Notes: generated from the sequence alone by a model not told the origin. Counted from the first letter of the stretch, positions 1,200-35,830 are shown. The stretch: 64,000 nucleotides of DNA from Candidatus Abyssobacteria bacterium SURF_5 (GCA_003598085.1 QZKU01000045.1:15852-79851), one strand, 5' to 3'. Numbers and translations: made by a program.

Positions 1200-1253
1200 A
1201 ATAAAAAAGAGCGCCCGACTGGACTCGAACCAGCGACACGCGGTTTAGGAAAC
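1200..1253. repeat. 54-bp direct repeat (attR-like). It duplicates the 3' part of tRNA-Arg(CCU), from the anticodon loop to the 3' end plus an 8-nt trailer.
   Basis: Perfect 54/54 identity with 8972..9025 (aataaaaaagagcgcccgactggactcgaaccagcgacacgcggtttaggaaac). Flanking bases differ on both sides (1199 a vs 8971 t; 1254 g vs 9026 c). Confidence 0.85.
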
Positions 1254-1510
1254 GAGACCGTTAAAAACGGCTGATGTGCAAACGGCTCGGAGGCTTATAA
1301 ATAAAGGCTTCTGGGCCGTTTCTTTTTGGTTTGCGTCGTGTCGTGTCGGCTCGTGTCGGCGTTTTAAGCACACTCACAAGCACACTGGCATGCACACTAC
1401 TGGACACATTTTGCAGTTGATTATGGGGTTGATCCATGATAGATTATTTCTTGTAGTGCTCGGTTCATCAAGCTCCATACATCTGACCAGAAGGGAGAAA
1501 TCTACTCGGC

Positions 1511-2650
1511 ATGCCATTTGAAATTAAATTTGAACAACTGCCGGGTGGATATGTAGTAACTTCCGCTCGTCCTGGCGAGGAATGGGAGATGGAGCTTCGG
1601 GGTTTCGTCTCCTCTGAAGATGGCGATGAGCTTGTGGCCAAACTCGAAAAATTACCTCAGCAGATTCTCTCTATGCTTCCATTCAAGCCGCCTATTCTGC
1701 CATCCATGGTAGATTCACTTTTGGCCGTGATTCGGAAGGACAGGACGGCAACCATATACCTAAATGAGGCGCAATCGGTTATCTTAATTCGCATAAAAGG
1801 CTCTTGTGAGAAAGGGGAATTAATAACAAAAAATCGTGTGTTGGATATGGGGAAAATGAGATTCCCTGGGGTAGATATTCCTCCAGACGCGGCCATCATA
1901 TACGTCTTTTCTGTAGGTTGGCGCAAAGGGTTCTTCTACGACCTTGAGCCTCTATATGGAGAAAAAGCCGAACCGCGCGGTTATGACCTTGAGGATGTTC
2001 TTGGAAGTCTCTACTCATATCTATCCTTCCAGGAACGGTTCAAGATTGACAATAAGACCTGGCAGACCTTCTTTGCGCAGAAATGGTTTCCATTCGTTTA
2101 CCTCGATGATCAGCTAATCCGCGACATGATATCGCACGCAAGGGCGGGGTGGCAGATCGATGAACTGCTTCCAAAGGTATCGGCCAACGTGGGACGGCTG
2201 CTTGAAACGTCCCCCTTGATTGAGAGGAAGGACTTGGTTTTTGCTGAACATATCGAGATGCTCAAGACATCTGTTGAAAGATATCTCGCAGGCGACCACA
2301 TTAGCTGCGCTTCAATTCTATACCCGCGCATCGAGGGATTGCTTCGGTCATTCCAACGGACCTCTGGATGCACATCCTACCCAACGGCAAAGACGTTGAG
2401 CAAAACTGCCGTGGAACACCATCAAACGGCAAGGATATCAGCTTCCCTTCTTCTTCCGTCGAAATTCAACGAATATCTGGACAATGTCTACTTCGCCCAT
2501 TTTATACCCGGCTCTGCGCCCGATGTTGGGCGACATTCCGTAGCACATGGTGAGGCCCGAACGGACGACTTCTCTCTTAAAGCAACTACTGTTGCATTTC
2601 TCATCATTTATCAGCTATCGCTGTTCTTCTCGGACGAAAAGAAGAAATAG
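1511..2650 (+). CDS. Hypothetical protein (379 aa) with a C-terminal R-x4-H motif suggestive of a HEPN-type RNase fold. Possibly Abi-like.
   Basis: Long ORF with an AGGGAG ribosome-binding site ~10 nt upstream. Motif G-R-H-S-V-A-H-G at nt 2531..2548 fits the HEPN R[NHQ]xxxH signature. The rest has no recognisable family. Lies inside the A+T-rich island. Confidence 0.45.
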   Translation: MPFEIKFEQLPGGYVVTSARPGEEWEMELRGFVSSEDGDELVAKLEKLPQQILSMLPFKPPILPSMVDSLLAVIRKDRTATIYLNEAQSVILIRIKGSCEKGELITKNRVLDMGKMRFPGVDIPPDAAIIYVFSVGWRKGFFYDLEPLYGEKAEPRGYDLEDVLGSLYSYLSFQERFKIDNKTWQTFFAQKWFPFVYLDDQLIRDMISHARAGWQIDELLPKVSANVGRLLETSPLIERKDLVFAEHIEMLKTSVERYLAGDHISCASILYPRIEGLLRSFQRTSGCTSYPTAKTLSKTAVEHHQTARISASLLLPSKFNEYLDNVYFAHFIPGSAPDVGRHSVAHGEARTDDFSLKATTVAFLIIYQLSLFFSDEKKK

Positions 2651-2872
2651 TGGATTTTCTTTCGGCTCACCTTAATGCGAAGGCCACGGCCCCTCCGAAC
2701 GATGACAAAATCTGCACGAACCATGAAGAAATATGCAGGAAAAATCACGAAATATCAAGGGGTTGTCGGGGAGTAGGGTTATTGGTCGGTTTTCTGGAAT
2801 TCGACCAATCTGGTATAATTACGTGCGTTCCGCCTCAGAGCTTTTCAATTTGCCAAAGGTAAAGGAGTCATC

Positions 2873-3985
2873 ATGCTTGGCAAAAACGATCTTCATCTGG
2901 AGTTGCTTGAGGTTGCCGAGCGCTTGGAACAACTAGCTCAGGAAGGTCAACTGCCGGATGTAAAGACACCGTTAGAAGAATTGGAAGGAGCAGCAAATAC
3001 AGTTGGTAAAGCTTGGAGCGGTTCATGGATCGGATATCAATCGCGTATTTACTACTCCTACTTCAAGCCTCCGCCACCGGGGGACCATTTTAATTCATGG
3101 GCGGGAAGGGCTGATACCGACAATTGGAAAGAAGTCGATAATGAAAAGGTACAAGAGCGAATTTACGAAAAGGCTGGTAATCCAGACCTTCAGAAGGCCG
3201 AAAGAGTTGCAGAAAGGGCTAGAAAGGCCTTTGAAAGCGATAAGCTTGAAGTCATGTCACTTTTGAATCATGCATTACTGGAGCAAGAGGATTCTTTTCT
3301 TGCTCAACTGAAAGATCGAGTTGAAAAAACAAATATCACTTCAAGAATGGAATTCATTCACGCGCTTCAACCCTCTAAATTTTCTACGCTTGATGTAGTT
3401 GCAGGACAACAGGGCATTCAAATTCCTCCTCATTTATCTATACTGTCTTTAGTTTACTACTTGCGCAATACGATAGAATCATGTGCGAAATTAGGACAAT
3501 TTGCGCGGAAGGCCGGGTCGCATCTGGCACGGCTACAGCGGCAAACCCGTCGCTCGCTCGAAATAGGCACCAACGTTTTCATTGGTCATGGTCGTTCTCC
3601 GGTCTGGAGGGAGTTAAAGGATTTCGTCCAGGACCGCCTCCACCTCCCTTGGGATGAGTTCAACCGCATTCCAGTTGCTGGAGTAACCAATGTGGCTCGC
3701 CTGTCCGAATTGCTTCAATCGGCGGCAATGGCATTCCTGGTTATGACGGGTGAGGATGAGCAAGCTGATGGTACTATGAACGCACGGATGAATGTAATTC
3801 ATGAAGCAGGATTGTTTCAGGGCCGTCTGGGTTTTAACCGGGCAATCATCTTACTGGAGGAGGGTTGTGAAGGATTCAGCAACATAGAAGGGCTGGGACA
3901 GATACCCTTCCCGAAGGGGAATATCACTGCGGCCTTTGAAAAAGTGCGAGAAGTCCTCGAAAGGGAAGGATTAATTGTGTCATGA
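2873..3985 (+). CDS. Protein with an unknown helical N-terminal domain (~240 aa) and a C-terminal CAP12/PycTIR-type TIR-like (PF10137-like) domain
   Basis: C-terminal segment VFIGHGRSPVWRELKDFV...AFLVMTGEDEQ...ARMNVIHEAGLFQGRLGFNRAIILLEEGCEGFSNIEGLGQI matches, block for block, the VFIVHGHD...FAIVLLTPDD...ARQNVIFELGFFLGKLGRERV..L.EKGVEIPSD..G pattern of the TIR-like domain of CBASS CAP12 and Pycsar PycTIR effectors. AAAGGAG ribosome-binding site precedes the ATG. An extended -10 (TGGTATAAT, 2811..2819) lies upstream. Confidence 0.7.
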   Translation: MLGKNDLHLELLEVAERLEQLAQEGQLPDVKTPLEELEGAANTVGKAWSGSWIGYQSRIYYSYFKPPPPGDHFNSWAGRADTDNWKEVDNEKVQERIYEKAGNPDLQKAERVAERARKAFESDKLEVMSLLNHALLEQEDSFLAQLKDRVEKTNITSRMEFIHALQPSKFSTLDVVAGQQGIQIPPHLSILSLVYYLRNTIESCAKLGQFARKAGSHLARLQRQTRRSLEIGTNVFIGHGRSPVWRELKDFVQDRLHLPWDEFNRIPVAGVTNVARLSELLQSAAMAFLVMTGEDEQADGTMNARMNVIHEAGLFQGRLGFNRAIILLEEGCEGFSNIEGLGQIPFPKGNITAAFEKVREVLEREGLIVS

Positions 3986-4024
3986 GATTTCTGCATTTTA
4001 GATAAAAAAGGGCTGAACAAAGAG

Positions 4025-4720
4025 ATGGCGGGTTCCAAGAAATATGAACCACCGAAGGCCACAGCAGGGGATTATACGCATACGGTTGTTCGTGCAGGTC
4101 TCGGTGCGATTCCTTTAGTGGGCACTGCCGCGACAGAGCTTTTCCGTCTTGTCGTCGAACCTCCATTGGATCGGCGTCGCCAGGTATGGATGGAAGAGGT
4201 CGGGGAGAGTCTCCGAAAGCTGGATGCTGAAAAGGGAGTGCGCCTGGAGGACCTCCGGGAGAATGATACTTTTATCGATATTGTCCTTCAGGCGAGCCAG
4301 GCTGCCATGAGGACCAGCCATGAAGAGAAGCGGAAAGCTTTACGAAATGCAATCATGAATTCGGCCCTCCCTCATTCGCCCGACGAGGCGCGACAACACT
4401 TTTTCATCCGACTAATTGACGAGCTTTCGGCACGGCATCTGCAGGTTTTAAAAATCTTCCAGGACCCCTTGGAATGGGCAAAAGCAAATAAGCACGATAC
4501 TCCGATAATAGTGGGTGACAACGAAGATGCGGATTTGGCGCGAAGACTTGCCTTTCCTGATATGGGTGACGAACGCCCCTATGCTGAGCAAATATGGCGG
4601 GACTTGCATGTTCGGGGCTTGGTTAAAAGAGATTCTTTTCAAAGGGTTTTCGGTCCCGCAAAGAACGAAATAACTGTTATCGCCCATGAATTTCTCCGGT
4701 ACATCAAGGAGCCGGTCTAA
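4025..4720 (+). CDS. Hypothetical protein (231 aa), probably co-transcribed with the upstream TIR-like gene
   Basis: ORF starts 40 nt after the stop of the previous gene and has an AAAGAG ribosome-binding site. No recognisable motif. Charged and helical composition. Confidence 0.45.
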   Translation: MAGSKKYEPPKATAGDYTHTVVRAGLGAIPLVGTAATELFRLVVEPPLDRRRQVWMEEVGESLRKLDAEKGVRLEDLRENDTFIDIVLQASQAAMRTSHEEKRKALRNAIMNSALPHSPDEARQHFFIRLIDELSARHLQVLKIFQDPLEWAKANKHDTPIIVGDNEDADLARRLAFPDMGDERPYAEQIWRDLHVRGLVKRDSFQRVFGPAKNEITVIAHEFLRYIKEPV

Positions 4721-4916
4721 TACACAGAAACAGCATTTCAAGCCTCTGTCCTTTGCAGCCTCCCTCTTGCCGTACTCCCGGTATACTCGAAAGCCAGTCA
4801 GGACGCCTCCGACCAGTGACGAAATCTCCTCGAATCGTGAAGAAAAAGGCAGGAAAATTTACGGAATATGAAGGGCTTCTCGTGAAATGGTGGTTATTGG
4901 TCGATTTTCCAGGAGG

Positions 4917-7445
4917 TCAGCCTCTCTTTCGTCTCGCTGGAATTTCAATAGTGACCGGTAGCCCAATCTGAACCGCGACGGGTGTGTAAATATCAATATC
5001 CTCTTGCGGGGTATAGATAGACACAATCAAGGTGTAACGAGTCCGCCTGCTCCACCTGTTCAAATGATGCCGTTCCCGCCACCATCCTACAGACGGATAA
5101 ACAGCGATTAGATTTGATCCGGCTAAATCCGCGGCTCTTCCGTGCCAGATATCGGAGTGAATTGAACCTACATTTCTTGCCGCTCCAATGAGCCAATTTC
5201 CCCCAATACCTTCCGTGCCAGGATGCTCGCCATCGTCGCGAGCTTGTTCATTCACTCGCTGAACAAATTCGCTTTCTGATTCCCCAGGTCCATTCACCTC
5301 AAAGCGAAGTCCATGTGAGGCATATCTATATCGATCTTCCCACCCCACCTCACCTGGACTGGGCTCAATGAAATATGAGAGAGTTATCCGCATCGTAACC
5401 TGCATTGCCCCAAGTTCCGTGAGAGTATCCTTGGGCCAAGGAAGGTTGTAGAGATGCATCTCTCGGGATATGTAGCGGCTTGCTAATTTCCTCGTACCAT
5501 CACGCCCTATGGATTCCTGAATCTTCTTCTCAAAGGGTGTCAATTCTGCCTGTGAAATCAAAGTCAAAGAATTAGATAAACAATACAAAGCATCATTTAG
5601 CTTGGGTACACCATACCCACAAATTCGCAGGAGTCTTGCGTAATCACTCTTTGATCCAGCTCCGAGGAACTGCCGCTTAAGAGTGCCTGTCCAACCTGCC
5701 GAATGAACAATCAGAGCGCGAATGGTTTCTGGCCAAGCATCCGGATATTGAGCCTGAATTTGTGCAGCCATCCATGCAGCTTGTGCGCAAGCAGCGCTCG
5801 TAGCGCAAAAAGTAGCGAATTGGGCTTCTTGTGGCTTGTAATACGTTGAAAATAGTTGCAGATCATCCGGACCCATTGCGGAACCATCCGGGCTGCGCGC
5901 AACGTTCCCTCCTTCAAAAACAACCTCAGGTTTTATTGGCCATTTTCGACTAGGCCATGCGGTCGAAGTAGTACTATAAGGAGATAGTCCTCCAGATGGT
6001 GCAATTGGCTTGTAGCCTTTATATGTAGGATCACTGATCCATATCTTTTCAGTAAACGCTCCAATAGTCAAGGCGTTCCATGCCTGCCCTGGATCATGGA
6101 CCTCATTTGACAGATTCGCGTCGGAATAGTTTCGCCAATCATCGGAAGTGCTAACGTTTCCGGCGCTGATTAAGATAAGACGTCGAGTATCATCTTCGTA
6201 TCCAGAGGCTATCTCGTCCAATTTGGCTGACCAAGAAGATGGCTTGCCCTGGTCACGGGTTTGCTCGGAGGTGACAGCAATACACCCGATGCGCTTTCGA
6301 GTTGGCGCTTGAATCTCTGCAAGACTTATCCCCTGGGCCGTAAAATATCCCCATAACTCCTTGGCATTCCTGTCAGGCGGTGGTGGCAGTATTTTTGCCG
6401 ACTCTATGCAATGGGTGATGTTCACGGGAACATCGTGATCAAGAAGAAGCGACAAATCACCATACGCAGCAGTTCCCGCCATAAGAGTTCCATGACCATC
6501 ATCATCATTTGTGCCCCAATGTCCACGAACAGCGTGAAGGTCGTCGGGGTTGAGAACCGGCTGAATCAGCAAGTGCCCATTATTCACACCTGTATCAAGA
6601 ATACAGACAGCCACATCTGAGTCTCTGTCAACAATTGTACGCGCCAACAGTCTTTGCACCAACACCAACTGATCGCGGTTATCCATCTGGACGTAAAAAG
6701 AAGCTATCTTCTTGGCCCCCCTAAATTCCGCAATGTCGTCCGAGCATTCAACTAATTGTTTCAGTTGGCTGCGATTCGCCCGAATAAGCATAACTGTTCT
6801 CTCTGGAAACTTAAGAATACCTTCTTTCAATTCGCACTTCACACTTCTCAACAACGGCTCAAAATGAGAGACAACTTGATCTTGGTCGCTGCTCAGCCAG
6901 ACCTCGACCCAATCGGGGGAATTACCCGGTATAAGAGATCGCTCCTCTGGACGCCAGAAAGATTCCAAGACGGCAAGGCGAATGTCGTCAATGCTATTCA
7001 CCAGATTATAATTTTTTGGTCTCTTGCTGCGCTCGTTAATCTCAGTCGCATATGCTCTAATTTTACTTAGGAAGTAGCGGCGCTTGTTATTTGGAACGTA
7101 GACCGTTGCCAGAGTCCGCTCCAGACCTTGCTCGTCTTGCTTTCGGACATTCTGGAGACGAATTCCAGACCGTAACACATCAAGGCTCTGGACAATCAAG
7201 TCGAAACCTGGTGTACTTTGAAATTCAATGTATGTACCTTGGCGTTCCACGTAAACGGCTGTTCGACGTTGACGTTGGTCAGCTTCAGCCCAAGTCTCAT
7301 TGAGGCGCTCCTGCAGATGAGCGCTATGCTGTTCTCGGTTTCGTGGTGGAATCTTTGGAGAGCGGCCCCCTTTATTTGGGCTAGTAAATCCTTGTGTGTG
7401 GGTTGGCCCTGCCAAGAATATGTGCCTGTATCGCTCACCAGCCAT
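4917..7445 (-). CDS. Subtilisin-like serine protease (peptidase S8 domain) with large N- and C-terminal extensions; IetS-like
   Basis: Catalytic motifs ILDTGV (Asp), GHGTLMAGTAAYGD (His) and FCATSAACAQAAW (Ser, GTSxA-like). 842 aa. Start codon lies 6 nt after the stop of the upstream AAA ATPase gene. This arrangement matches the IetA/IetS two-gene module known from Agrobacterium Ti plasmids and reported as an anti-phage system. Confidence 0.75.
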   Translation of the reverse strand: MAGERYRHIFLAGPTHTQGFTSPNKGGRSPKIPPRNREQHSAHLQERLNETWAEADQRQRRTAVYVERQGTYIEFQSTPGFDLIVQSLDVLRSGIRLQNVRKQDEQGLERTLATVYVPNNKRRYFLSKIRAYATEINERSKRPKNYNLVNSIDDIRLAVLESFWRPEERSLIPGNSPDWVEVWLSSDQDQVVSHFEPLLRSVKCELKEGILKFPERTVMLIRANRSQLKQLVECSDDIAEFRGAKKIASFYVQMDNRDQLVLVQRLLARTIVDRDSDVAVCILDTGVNNGHLLIQPVLNPDDLHAVRGHWGTNDDDGHGTLMAGTAAYGDLSLLLDHDVPVNITHCIESAKILPPPPDRNAKELWGYFTAQGISLAEIQAPTRKRIGCIAVTSEQTRDQGKPSSWSAKLDEIASGYEDDTRRLILISAGNVSTSDDWRNYSDANLSNEVHDPGQAWNALTIGAFTEKIWISDPTYKGYKPIAPSGGLSPYSTTSTAWPSRKWPIKPEVVFEGGNVARSPDGSAMGPDDLQLFSTYYKPQEAQFATFCATSAACAQAAWMAAQIQAQYPDAWPETIRALIVHSAGWTGTLKRQFLGAGSKSDYARLLRICGYGVPKLNDALYCLSNSLTLISQAELTPFEKKIQESIGRDGTRKLASRYISREMHLYNLPWPKDTLTELGAMQVTMRITLSYFIEPSPGEVGWEDRYRYASHGLRFEVNGPGESESEFVQRVNEQARDDGEHPGTEGIGGNWLIGAARNVGSIHSDIWHGRAADLAGSNLIAVYPSVGWWRERHHLNRWSRRTRYTLIVSIYTPQEDIDIYTPVAVQIGLPVTIEIPARRKRG

Positions 7446-7451
7446 TTGGCA

Positions 7452-8420
7452 TTAACCTTTGTGTTTTCCGTGCGAGCTTTGTCGTTCCTTCAACATTTGT
7501 AGTAGCAAGGTTGCCTTCACCTTTCCCAAATCAGCAAGGATAACTTCTTTAATGGCGTCTCGGCAGGCTTGGTCAATCTCTGCATGACTCAACCCTTCAC
7601 TTTCGGCAAGCACGCTCTTCCACGCAAATCGTGAAGCCAAGAAACTTCCCAGTACGTTTTGCATCAAACGTCGCCGTTCGTTTTCTTTTGGCTGGTCATA
7701 GTAAAGAACGTCATCGAAACGTCGAAACAATGCTCGATCCAAGAGTTTTGGGCTATTCGTAGCGGTAATGATTAGGCTATCAGAAACATCCTGCTCGATG
7801 AATTGCAGAAATGAATTCAGAACACGGCGCATCTCTCCCACATCATTTTCTAAAGTCCTCTCACCGCCAATCGCATCGAATTCATCGAATAAGTACACCC
7901 CAAGGTCCCTCTGAACCAAGTCAAAAATCTGGCGGAGCTTTGCACTTGTTTCTCCCATAAATTTAGTTACCAGTCGATCCACCTGAATTGTATGGAGCGG
8001 CATGCGAAGCTCGTGTGCCAATACGCGCGCAGACATTGTCTTTCCCGTTCCTGGCGGGCCAACAAGCATAATTTTCCGGCGAGGCATTAGACCGTGCTCT
8101 TTGAGTTTCTGCCTTTGCCTGTACTCGTGGATTATTCGTTTTATTCGCTTCTGTAAGGCAAGGGGTAAAACCAAGGTCGCCTGAGAAACGTCCGGTTCCC
8201 CCGACAGGACAAGTCCCCGCAAATCTTGCGGAAACTTTAAAAGTGTGAGCCTATTTTCGCTGCGCGCTTCATCAACCATTTTGCGGATATCATGAGCCAG
8301 CGCGCCATGTCCCTGCTGAGCCTCGTATGCTGCAACCTGAAGTGCAATAGTGTAAAAACGTTCCGGGTCCTCACTGAAATGACACCTTATCAATGACTTG
8401 ATCTGTTCCGCAGTTGCCAT
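7452..8420 (-). CDS. AAA+ ATPase (classic AAA clade), IetA-like partner of the S8 protease
   Basis: Walker A LVGPPGTGKT, Walker B VYLFDEFD, sensor-1 ITATN and an SRH-like LDRALFRRFD. 322 aa. GGAGAA ribosome-binding site upstream. Confidence 0.8.
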   Translation of the reverse strand: MATAEQIKSLIRCHFSEDPERFYTIALQVAAYEAQQGHGALAHDIRKMVDEARSENRLTLLKFPQDLRGLVLSGEPDVSQATLVLPLALQKRIKRIIHEYRQRQKLKEHGLMPRRKIMLVGPPGTGKTMSARVLAHELRMPLHTIQVDRLVTKFMGETSAKLRQIFDLVQRDLGVYLFDEFDAIGGERTLENDVGEMRRVLNSFLQFIEQDVSDSLIITATNSPKLLDRALFRRFDDVLYYDQPKENERRRLMQNVLGSFLASRFAWKSVLAESEGLSHAEIDQACRDAIKEVILADLGKVKATLLLQMLKERQSSHGKHKG

Positions 8421-8478
8421 AAGATTCTCCGAATTTCTTTTCGCTAGCTCATGCGCGACTGCAAATGTCTATGTTCAA

Positions 8479-8507
8479 AGTGTACTTGATTTGCTGAAGA
8501 TTATCAA
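8479..8507 (-). promoter_or_regulatory. Candidate sigma-70 promoter for the ATPase-protease operon (TTGATA-17-TACACT read on the minus strand)
   Basis: -35 TTGATA is the reverse complement of 8502..8507. -10 TACACT is the reverse complement of 8479..8484. Spacer is 17 nt. About 60 nt upstream of the ATG at 8420. Confidence 0.25.
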
Positions 8508-8971
8508 ATTATTAGAGGTACAGGCGAATGGAATCATTTCATACGGCTCCTACACCCCACCTTCCTGATGCCTATGCATCATCCATTGTGAATTGGATCA
8601 GGTTCTGCTATCTTCTCCGCAGATGGACACGACGCCTTATAGAAGACATCCGACCACCTCGATGCAACATAAGCGGCTGTGTCAGCAGCGGCTGTGTCAG
8701 CATCAGCCTTCACATCTTCCTCTGTCGGCTCCTGTGCCCACAGGCGGACATTCTGCACCCTTGCCTCTCTCTTTGCCTCTAGGAAGTCCTCCTGATACTT
8801 CATTCGGCGGGAATGTTCCGCGATGCCGGTCTGAAGACGGCTGCACTGAAGCAAGGGGTTTATTCAGAGAGGCTTGGAAATGAAACAAGTACACTGACAA
8901 GCACACTCGTCCATTTTCCCACCAACCAAGAAAAATCTGCCGAGCTCACAAATAAAAATAGGGCAAAGAAT

Positions 8972-9025
8972 AATAAAAAAGAGCGCCCGACTGGACTCGA
9001 ACCAGCGACACGCGGTTTAGGAAAC
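8972..9025. repeat. 54-bp direct repeat (attL-like), the copy that lies within and next to the intact tRNA-Arg gene
   Basis: Identical to 1200..1253. Confidence 0.85.
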
Positions 9026-9055
9026 CGCTGCTCTATCCTTCTGAGCTACGGGCGC
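8982..9055 (-). tRNA. tRNA-Arg(CCU)
   Basis: Reverse complement folds as a cloverleaf. Acceptor stem GCGCCCG/CGGGCGC. D arm GCUC-AGAAGGAUA-GAGC. Anticodon stem-loop GCGGU-UUCCUAA-ACCGC (anticodon CCU). T arm GCUGG-UUCGAGU-CCAGU. 74 nt with no encoded CCA. Confidence 0.85.
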
Positions 9056-34690: not shown

Positions 34691-35830
34691 TCAGGTGCCG
34701 AAGACTTCCTTGAATTTGTCAAGGAATTTCTTAGTGAGAGGCTGAGTTTCTTCGCCGCTGATTTTGGCGAATTCCTCGAGGAGTTCTCGCTGGCGATCGT
34801 TCAGCTTTGTCGGAGTCTCGATAACCGCCCTGACAAAAAGGTCGCCCCGCCCATGACTGCGAAGGCCGGGCATCCCTTTGCCCTTTACTCGAAAAATGTG
34901 GTGGGATTGCGTGCCTTTCGGAATCTTCAGTGAAATCTTGCCGTCCAGAGTGGGTACCCGAATCTCGGCTCCGAGGGCGGCCTGAGGAAAGGAAACGGGA
35001 ACTTCACAAATCAAATTATCGCCTTCACGCTTGAAAAAGTCATGTTCGCGCACATTTATCATGAGATAAAGGTCGCCATTGGGACCGCCTCTTGCGCCGG
35101 CCTCTCCTTCTCCGCGATACCGGATGCGGGAACCGTTATCGACTCCCGCCGGAACCGTTATCCGCAGCTTCCGCGTGGTCCGAATGCGGCCTTCTCCCTT
35201 GCACTTTCTACACGGATTCTCGAGGACCGCCCCCGCGCCCATACACCTGTGGCATGTGCGCGTTATGCTGAAAAATCCCTGCGTCTGCCTGACGCGGCCC
35301 GCGCCCCTGCACACCGGACAAACCGCTTGGCCGCTCCCAGGCTCGGCGCCCGTGCCCCCGCAGATGTCGCAATTGTCCAGGCGGGGAATCGATATCTCGC
35401 GCTCGAATCCTTCAAAGGCCTCTTCCAGCGTGAGGTCCAGGTTATATACAATGTCGTCTCCCTTTTGAACCCGACTGCGGCGGGTATCGGTACGAGCGCC
35501 GAAGAAGTCCTCGAAAATGTCGCCGAAGATATCGCCGAACGACCCAAAACCAAAATCGTTCATTCCTGCCCCAACGCCGGCATGTCCGAATTGGTCATAG
35601 TTCGCCCGTTTCTCCGGGTCAGTCAGAACGGCATACGCTTCCGCAATCTCCTTGAATTTCTCCTCGGACTCCTTATCTCCCTGCGTTCGGTCAGGATGAT
35701 GCTTCATCGCCAGCCTGCGATATGCTTTGCGAATATCATCCTCGGTCGCTCCCCGCGGGATGCCGAGCACCTCGTAATAATCCCGTTTTCCCATAGCTCT
35801 TGAGCTTAAGCAAGAGGACCATCTTTGCAA
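34691..35830 (-). CDS. dnaJ: Chaperone DnaJ
   Basis: J domain with HPD. G/F-rich linker. Four CxxCxGxG zinc-finger repeats. Confidence 0.9.

Follow-up and report, generated by a model that had tools for sequence, protein, structure and literature searches.

Does an ATPase gene followed at once by a subtilisin-like protease gene amount to an IetA-IetS (IetAS) module, and, if it does, is that module better read as a phage-defence system or as a device that stabilises the DNA carrying it? The question is raised by a locus in the metagenome-assembled genome (MAG) of Candidatus Abyssubacteria bacterium SURF_5, an organism that NCBI taxonomy places under Candidatus Hydrogenedentota. We analysed a 64,000-nucleotide (nt) stretch of this genome (QZKU01000045.1:15852-79851, hereafter the window), in which the two genes, here called ietA and ietS, lie in tandem on the minus strand within a small islet integrated at a transfer RNA (tRNA) gene. 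The locus is a divergent but canonical IetAS of the type represented by the founding pair on the Ti plasmid pTiC58, that is, a known kind of system in an under-sampled lineage.

An ATPase-subtilase operon collinear with the founding pair

The original prediction, made from the sequence alone, had described a 322-amino-acid (aa) AAA gene with an 842-aa S8 protease gene 6 nt further on, and both the list of open reading frames (ORFs) and a direct reading of the spacer agree with that description (Table 1). Both ORFs open with ATG, and the short spacer suggests translational coupling. In GenBank the products carry generic labels, 'ATP-binding protein' for ietA (RJP23516.1) and 'peptidase S8' for ietS (RJP23515.1). 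Gene calls for the protease differ, GenBank giving 842 aa and JGI 777 aa with a start 65 codons downstream; we favour the longer form because residues 1-65 are conserved across homologs and because it is the GenBank call. Neither protein has a signal peptide or a transmembrane segment (maximum Kyte-Doolittle score 1.26 in a 19-residue window), indicating that both are cytoplasmic.

For comparison with the founding pair, we located on pTiC58 (NC_003065.3) a 328-aa AAA gene (97873-98859) followed after 3 nt by an 836-aa S8 gene (98863-101373). This is the only such pair in the stretch of pTiC58 examined, and tblastn found one matching place in each listed Ti-plasmid record; the two genes (ATU_RS23410/23415) were taken as ietA and ietS on the uniqueness of the pair and on secondary literature (PMC5006074), through which the founding description (Yamamoto et al. 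2009, J Bacteriol 191:4656) is also cited here. BLASTP aligned the window IetA with pTiC58 IetA at 48% identity over residues 1-316 of 322 against 1-325 of 328 (E 8e-100), a homology that takes in the N-terminal helical region ahead of the AAA module. IetS aligned with its pTiC58 counterpart at 39% identity over residues 8-835 of 842 against 11-832 of 836 (E 3e-172), and therefore both the N- and the C-terminal extension of the protease are collinear with pTiC58 IetS. The resemblance is thus one of near full-length collinearity and not merely of generic AAA and S8 domains.

Profile searches gave the same picture. In PADLOC, where we assigned a system when adjacent genes matched the IetA and IetS hidden Markov models, the window ATPase matched the IetA model PDLC02196 at 1.4e-72, its residues 2-316 aligning with positions 2-324 of the 374 in the model, and the protease matched the IetS models PDLC02198 (2e-26) and PDLC02197 (1.2e-20). 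The corresponding bit scores for IetA and IetS were 243 and 90 for the window pair, against 239 and 86 for the pTiC58 pair (E values 2.6e-71 and 4.8e-25). Judged by the PADLOC scores and the pTiC58 alignments, the window pair is as much an IetAS as the founding pair itself. The earlier identification of an IetA-IetS module is borne out by these comparisons, and we assign the two genes with high confidence to a canonical IetAS module of the pTiC58 type, with both of its genes intact.

Could the two genes instead be a housekeeping or secretion AAA protein beside an ordinary subtilase, such as the EccA and mycosin of a type VII secretion system (T7SS) or a secreted protease, unrelated to IetAS? 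In favour of such an arrangement are weak NCBIfam matches, 32 bits for T7SS mycosin and 35 bits for EccA, but the cut-offs of these models, 279 and 467 bits, lie far above. Neither a signal peptide nor a membrane anchor is present, no other secretion or ESX genes occur among the islet ORFs, and the full-length collinearity with IetA and IetS, together with the conserved pairing described below, effectively refutes this reading, whose probability we put close to nil. A TRIP13/HORMA regulator of the cyclic-oligonucleotide-based anti-phage signalling system (CBASS) was also considered and rejected: the ATPase scored 47.7 bits for TRIP13 against 243 bits for IetA, and the islet contains no HORMA or cyclase gene.

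Both proteins retain intact functional motifs

The subtilisin-like domain of IetS (Pfam Peptidase_S8, PF00082, 3.3e-59) is embedded between about 275 N-terminal and about 230 C-terminal residues that match no Pfam family. Within it, D284 stands in DTGV, H318 in GHGT and S550 in ATSAA, while the oxyanion-hole residue N430 stands in SAGN, and each of these four residues is at least 95% conserved among 80 relatives. The complete S8 triad between large extra regions that had been read from the sequence is therefore present as described.

Residues 1-35 of the N-terminal extension are a tail, conserved in the family and modelled with low confidence, after which come alpha/beta modules; conserved positions in this part of the protein include H8, L11, T21, P23, GG26-27, R35 and H40. 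Modelled alone with AlphaFold2, the extension reached a mean predicted local distance difference test (pLDDT) score of 73. Residues 178-243 form a beta-alpha-beta-beta-alpha-beta unit (pLDDT about 90), a predicted topology that recalls subtilase pro-domains. Foldseek returned weak matches of the N-terminal extension to ACT or ferredoxin-like folds in the PDB, with template modelling (TM) scores of 0.2-0.3.

The C-terminal extension consists of a variable linker or insert (residues 641-660) and a conserved, mainly-beta domain with the motifs TLSYFIEP, RYRYASHGLRF, GSIHSDIW and GWWRERHH, which are conserved across the 80 relatives, pTiC58 included. Its AlphaFold2 model (mean pLDDT 76.6, predicted TM score 0.71) gave weak jelly-roll-like matches to the PDB (TM about 0.3), and we build no functional claim on the Foldseek matches of either extension. 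A PDB sequence search with IetS gave nothing at E <= 0.001. The family PF27160 is listed in precomputed annotation for some close IetS homologs (P0015, P0023, P0024 and others); it was absent from our local Pfam scan, even in a homolog listed as carrying it, and might be a more recent family that corresponds to one of the extensions. The motifs mapped in both extensions and in the N-terminal tail are concrete targets for mutagenesis.

IetA is a classic-clade AAA+ ATPase (Pfam AAA, PF00004, 7.8e-29, residues 117-240) whose nearest relatives of solved structure are p97, CDC48 and AFG2 (about 1e-40) and which, among named families, comes nearest to the proteasomal ATPases and FtsH. In the alignment of relatives, conservation is at least 95% for its pore-loop motif, its Walker A and B motifs, sensor-1 and the Arg fingers, and ALfRRFDD is kept throughout. 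Classic-clade AAA proteins are hexamers that thread polypeptides, and the association of the pore-loop-1 motif with substrate threading comes from classic AAA proteins in general.

A strictly paired module in many phyla

To place the pair in its family, we surveyed relatives of the protease. Databases contain over 3,800 relatives of IetS, and the closest, 60-69% identical over their full length, derive from MAGs that span many phyla. Scanning species-representative genomes yielded 80 related loci (43-67% identity) from Nitrospirota, Desulfobacterota, Verrucomicrobiota, Acidobacteriota, Bacillota, Bacteroidota, Myxococcota and other phyla. In 78 of the 80, the protease gene is directly preceded on its own strand by a gene for an IetA homolog; in the other two, the protease is at a contig edge. 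The spacer between the genes is mostly 3-6 nt (72 related loci), and the identities of IetA and IetS to their homologs covary from locus to locus (r = 0.93, 72 pairs).

None of the other islet proteins (81, 379, 70, 370 and 231 aa) had a tblastn match in the 82 loci searched (L001-L082), showing that these genes do not travel with ietAS. Together with the strict pairing and the covariation, this indicates that ietAS is a two-gene module that is complete in itself, is inherited as a unit and moves horizontally. At the DNA level, Megablast searches with the locus found no relatives in E. coli genomes or in plasmids. At the protein level, homologs on Klebsiella, Enterobacter and Citrobacter plasmids are collinear with IetS over residues 8-823, and the pTiC58-type clade is rare in E. 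coli, being found on 7 plasmids among 5,426 genomes, all under generic product names. The window adds a labelled IetAS pair to the poorly sampled deep-subsurface lineage Candidatus Abyssubacteria.

A tRNA-Arg islet with perfect repeats and no integrase

The pair lies in an islet that is bounded by a perfect 54-nt direct repeat, for which the chance expectation is about 6e-24, and that differs from its flank in base composition (Table 1). The tRNA is 560 nt upstream of ietA, and the gene for a 231-aa protein converges on ietS from downstream. Pfam and PHROGs scans of all islet ORFs, down to the small ones that lie between ietA and the tRNA, detected no integrase or other recombinase, and the element is either decayed or reliant on a recombinase supplied in trans. 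Repeats of the AAGCACACT type, with a 21-nt unit at 86-90% identity, occur just inside both islet ends (1366-1398 and 8887-8907), the distance to the attachment (att) repeat being 113 nt at the distal end and 65 nt at the tRNA-proximal end; they may be arm-type sites for a recombinase, or the match may be due to chance. Elsewhere in the window, a 98-nt tRNA-Ile(GAT) proposed by ARAGORN (34723-34820, plus strand) is probably false: it falls below the Rfam gathering threshold and overlaps long ORFs.

Besides ietAS, the islet carries plus-strand genes for proteins of 81, 379, 70, 370 and 231 aa, of which the 81- and 70-aa products match no family. The 370-aa protein, with a C-terminal TIR domain, also matches phrog_16442 (2.4e-35) and, weakly, the PADLOC models PDC-S35, PycTIR and the CBASS TIR effector; no cyclase or other signalling partner for it was seen in the islet. 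A hypothetical homolog of the 379-aa protein, 35% identical, is encoded on a Rubrobacter tropicus plasmid, and rhizobial plasmids encode weaker homologs. Both the TIR gene and the 231-aa gene are convergent with ietS, and the reading of ietAS as convergent with a TIR-like cassette inside one tRNA island is upheld by ORF strands, the PF10137 match and the tRNA repeat. The further description of the region as a small defence island stands in part: the 54-nt repeat does bound an island with a TIR gene inside, but only ietAS matches a named system, the other genes matching no validated defence system beyond the TIR domain.

Table 1 Features of the ietAS locus and its islet, in window coordinates
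Feature	Position	Strand	Basis
ietA, 322-aa classic-clade AAA+ ATPase, putative antitoxin/regulator	7452..8420	-	ORF list, PF00004, PADLOC, BLASTP against pTiC58
ietS, 842-aa cytoplasmic S8 (subtilisin-like) protease, putative toxin/effector	4917..7445	-	ORF list, PF00082, PADLOC, BLASTP against pTiC58
ietA-ietS spacer TGCCAA, 6 nt	7446..7451	-	between ietA stop TAA and ietS ATG
Ribosome-binding site GGAG, 6 nt 5' of ietA ATG	8427..8430	-	direct sequence reading
Candidate sigma-70-like promoter TTGATA-17-TACACT, 5' of ietA	8479..8507	-	promoter-like site scan
IetA Walker A GPPGTGKT, residues 121-128	8037..8060	-	conserved in 75 relatives
IetA pore-loop-1 TKFMGET, residues 152-158 (aromatic-hydrophobic-Gly)	7947..7967	-	T, K, M, G, E, T at least 95% conserved
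IetA Walker B FDEFD, residues 178-182	7875..7889	-	motif reading, alignment of relatives
IetA sensor-1 TATN (219-222) and second region of homology with Arg fingers RALFRRFD (229-236)	7713..7766	-	alignment
IetS N-terminal extension, residues 1-275	6621..7445	-	conservation, AlphaFold2, Foldseek
IetS S8 catalytic domain, residues 276-612	5610..6620	-	Pfam, motif reading, conservation
IetS catalytic residues D284; H318; N430; S550	6594-6596; 6492-6494; 6156-6158; 5796-5798	-	
IetS C-terminal extension, residues 613-842	4920..5609	-	conservation, AlphaFold2, Foldseek
tRNA-Arg(CCT), integration target	8981..9055	-	ARAGORN; Rfam tRNA model, 63 bits
tRNA-proximal att repeat (3' 45 nt of tRNA-Arg(CCT) and 9 nt downstream)	8972..9025	.	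repeat search
Distal att repeat, partial copy of tRNA 3' end	1200..1253	.	perfect 54-nt direct repeat
Islet carrying ietAS, 7,718 bp	1254..8971	.	GC 0.483, against 0.543 in flank
379-aa protein, no family match	1511-2650	+	
370-aa protein, C-terminal CAP12/Pycsar-type TIR domain, residues 234-346	2873-3985	+	PF10137, 2.4e-18
231-aa protein	4025-4720	+	phrog_26838 (8e-8); Abi_alpha only at E 0.03

Repeats of this kind were also sought at the related loci, and a bracketing tRNA repeat was found in 3 of 81 loci (the 80 related loci and the window). In a Latescibacterota locus (L026, 5976-10667), a 35-nt repeat of a tRNA-Val 3' end surrounds about 4.6 kb that lack an integrase and hold ietAS together with two small ORFs. 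In a Victivallales locus (L058, 3672-14546), a 42-nt tRNA-Met repeat surrounds 10.8 kb that hold ietAS, two split integrase fragments, RadC, DUF932 and an ankyrin protein. Alignment of the region 5' of ietA with its counterpart in L026 showed no meaningful similarity. Because only these 3 of 81 loci show a bracketing repeat, the tRNA-islet pattern is anecdotal.

The islet brings in a second reading of what the pair is for, in which its main role would be addiction, that is, stabilisation of the islet rather than phage defence, although a defence role may coexist with it. Loss of the islet by recombination between the 54-nt repeats would halt the supply of IetA and release IetS, and the pair and its neighbouring genes would be kept despite the loss of an integrase. 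Perfect 54-nt repeats in an islet that lacks an integrase, and the like pattern in the Latescibacterota and Victivallales loci, are what this reading would lead one to expect; recurrent tRNA islets would be consistent with addiction that preserves decayed islets, as proposed for SgiAT in SGI1 (PMC5006074). The characterised relatives within the clade, those of pTiC58 and of SGI1 SgiAT, show plasmid or island stability or toxin-antitoxin activity (PMC5006074), and the window pair is as near to IetA and IetS (48% and 39% identity) as SgiA and SgiT are (50% and 36%; published figures, PMC5006074). Against it, the bracketing repeat is confined to just those three loci, and the Pycsar/CBASS-type TIR gene of the islet fits the context of a defence island.

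Proposed restraint of a toxic protease by its AAA partner

In the pairs of pTiC58 and SGI1 the protease is the toxin and is neutralised by its AAA partner (PMC5006074), as is also the case in mycoplasmas (PMC8562856), and for ietA a mutant could not be made (PMC13069673). For the window pair, operon structure, full-length homology, catalytic motifs and strict co-inheritance are direct observations; the mechanism that we propose on top of them is conditional. Being a classic-clade AAA+ ATPase whose pore loop is intact, IetA is most likely a hexameric protein unfoldase or remodeller, and it would use ATP to keep IetS, a cytoplasmic subtilase, in an inactive state. It may do so by taking hold of the N-terminal tail of IetS, which is conserved, and of the extension that resembles a pro-domain. 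Were IetA titrated, inhibited or not resupplied, whether owing to a phage-encoded trigger or to loss of the islet, IetS would become active and cleave host proteins, with growth arrest or death as the outcome; this would amount to abortive infection or to post-segregational killing.

Taken as a composite, an islet-borne, canonical pTiC58-type IetAS in which IetA restrains a toxic IetS is in our judgement probable. The antitoxin-restrains-protease logic, considered by itself, is somewhat favoured. The engagement of the IetS N-terminal tail by IetA is a tentative suggestion that we regard as rather doubtful.

A different division of labour would make IetA a substrate-delivery unfoldase, so that IetA and IetS together would act as an ATP-dependent protease, akin to the proteasome or Clp, on specific targets such as phage proteins. 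The position of IetA in the proteasomal/FtsH/CDC48 clade of ATPases, with its intact pore loop, would suit such a holoenzyme, and strict pairing and covariation would be equally expected of it. Subtilases, though, are monomeric proteases with open active sites, not self-compartmentalised chambers. In relatives, moreover, toxicity comes from the protease by itself and is neutralised by the ATPase (PMC5006074, PMC8562856), and inactivation of ietA is not tolerated (PMC13069673). We consider a holoenzyme of this kind improbable, and retain restraint of IetS by IetA as the preferred reading.

A bolder combination joins two of these ideas: pTiC58-type IetAS would be a persistence device of decayed, integrase-less tRNA islets, and the IetS N-terminal tail would be the handle by which IetA grips its partner. 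Both parts holding together is unlikely. If they did, an addictive pair would block deletion between the att repeats, and 'fossil' islets would survive with an ietAS core and its neighbours, such as the TIR gene here.

The defence label and a split within IetAS

The mechanism set out above, and above all any extension of it to phage defence, has to be weighed against a number of opposing observations. The first group concerns the profile models on which an anti-phage label would rest. NCBIfam provides two equivalog models, 'anti-phage ATPase IteA' (NF042959, cut-off 510 bits) and 'S8 family anti-phage peptidase IteS' (NF042956, cut-off 900 bits), and the window pair falls below both, at 210.6 and 64.7 bits; the ATPase matches NF042959 at 3.8e-62, and the IteS model aligns to residues 189-637 of the protease only. 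Neither does the founding pair pass, pTiC58 IetA scoring 198.8 bits and pTiC58 IetS having no IteS match at 1e-10, and a Klebsiella plasmid pair is likewise under the cut-offs. The failure of all three pairs indicates that the NCBI equivalogs define a narrower clade, one that excludes the founding clade. Firmicute phages carry pairs that outscore the window pair, at 259-288 bits for IteA and 151-159 bits for IteS, yet these too miss the cut-offs.

Two such phage pairs were compared with the window: the Yerffej pair of a Paenibacillus phage (gp23/gp25, L085 3737-7149), with a 30-aa ORF between its two genes, and a pair in the Acutalibacteraceae phage NatCom_11578 (L086 3995-7434). In Firmicute temperate phages, AAA+S8 pairs are placed immediately past the lysis genes or close to a helicase gene. 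With window IetS, the 695-aa Yerffej protease aligns on the catalytic core only (21% identity, residues 276-637), the Acutalibacteraceae protease (758 aa) only over a short stretch around the catalytic Asp and His, and neither shows similarity to IetS in the extensions. 'IetAS' thus appears, from comparison with these sub-cut-off Firmicute phage pairs, to span at least two deep clades whose proteases have only the catalytic core in common.

A second group concerns the proteins and the sources of the functional evidence. Fold matches are weak for both IetS extensions, and the low confidence of the N-terminal tail may be an artefact of modelling that domain in isolation. Promoter-like sites in the region are no commoner than in shuffled sequence, and the promoter 5' of ietA therefore remains a mere candidate. 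The experiments were made on other representatives, the close relatives (60-69% identity) being all MAG- or metagenome-derived, and the molecular and anti-phage mechanism of IetAS is stated to remain unknown (PMC13069673); the window locus makes that mechanism no more tractable than the cultured examples do.

Anti-phage activity has been reported for ietAS of B. cereus m1293, where abortive infection is triggered by SPbeta YosG (bioRxiv 10.1101/2022.08.27.505566), for IetAS of E. coli ECOR52 (bioRxiv 10.1101/2022.08.21.504612) and for ietHAS, in which protease activity is required for defence (PMC13069673). The association with phage resistance made in the original prediction consequently holds for other IetAS representatives, but does not carry over directly to a window pair that fails the NCBI anti-phage cut-offs. 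Phage defence by the pTiC58-type clade is an extrapolation, because the activity shown for this clade is of the toxin-antitoxin or stability kind and because the NCBI cut-offs are failed; for the latter reason, a defence role is assigned here by family and not by orthology, and anti-phage function might not transfer to the clade.

The same failure to pass the anti-phage cut-offs counts in favour of addiction as the main role. On the other side, PADLOC places the pTiC58-type clade among its IetAS defence models, and toxin-antitoxin and abortive-infection roles often coincide. Weighing these points with those from the islet, we regard addiction as the main role as a real possibility, if one that falls somewhat short of even. 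For annotation, the lesson is that the stability and toxin-antitoxin evidence belongs to one clade and the NCBI anti-phage models describe another, narrower one, a split that makes the 'defence' label on pTiC58-type pairs an extrapolation.

Comparison with known systems

Among the anti-phage systems, ietAS as described by Gao et al. 2020 and for m1293 resembles the window pair in its two-gene logic, in its AAA subfamily and in the PADLOC grouping of IetA and IetS. It differs in that the window pair lies far under the cut-offs of the anti-phage-type models, and the Firmicute phage proteases are 695-758 aa long, against 842 aa here. The ietHAS system (Liu-DS4) also has IetA and IetS components but requires an SNF2-type helicase, IetH (PMC13069673); no helicase domain was found in any islet ORF, and the window locus is not this three-gene variant.

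Closer in biological setting is the SgiA/SgiT pair (S026/S025) of SGI1, an AAA antitoxin with a subtilase toxin that resides on a chromosomally integrated island and promotes its maintenance (PMC5006074). SGI1 is, however, a large mobilisable island with its own integrase, whereas none was detected in the window islet. The Mycoplasma TA132/133 pair, set beside the window pair by its published description, likewise has its AAA antitoxin gene upstream of an S8 toxin gene and flanking direct repeats, but its proteins are of 353 and 757 aa and its hosts are Mollicutes (PMC8562856).

The nearest likeness is to pTiC58 itself. The two pairs have the AAA-then-S8 order, a spacer of 3-6 nt, proteins of 328 and 836 aa on the plasmid against 322 and 842 aa in the window, and the same catalytic motifs. 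They differ in that the pTiC58 pair lies on a conjugative alpha-proteobacterial plasmid downstream of a DUF6088 gene, whereas the window pair is chromosomal, has no DUF6088 gene and sits in a tRNA-integrated islet of an uncultured bacterium of the Hydrogenedentota lineage; window IetS also has an extra variable insert (residues 641-660) relative to pTiC58 IetS. Across such different carriers, the pTiC58-type clade spans many phyla as a strictly two-gene unit.

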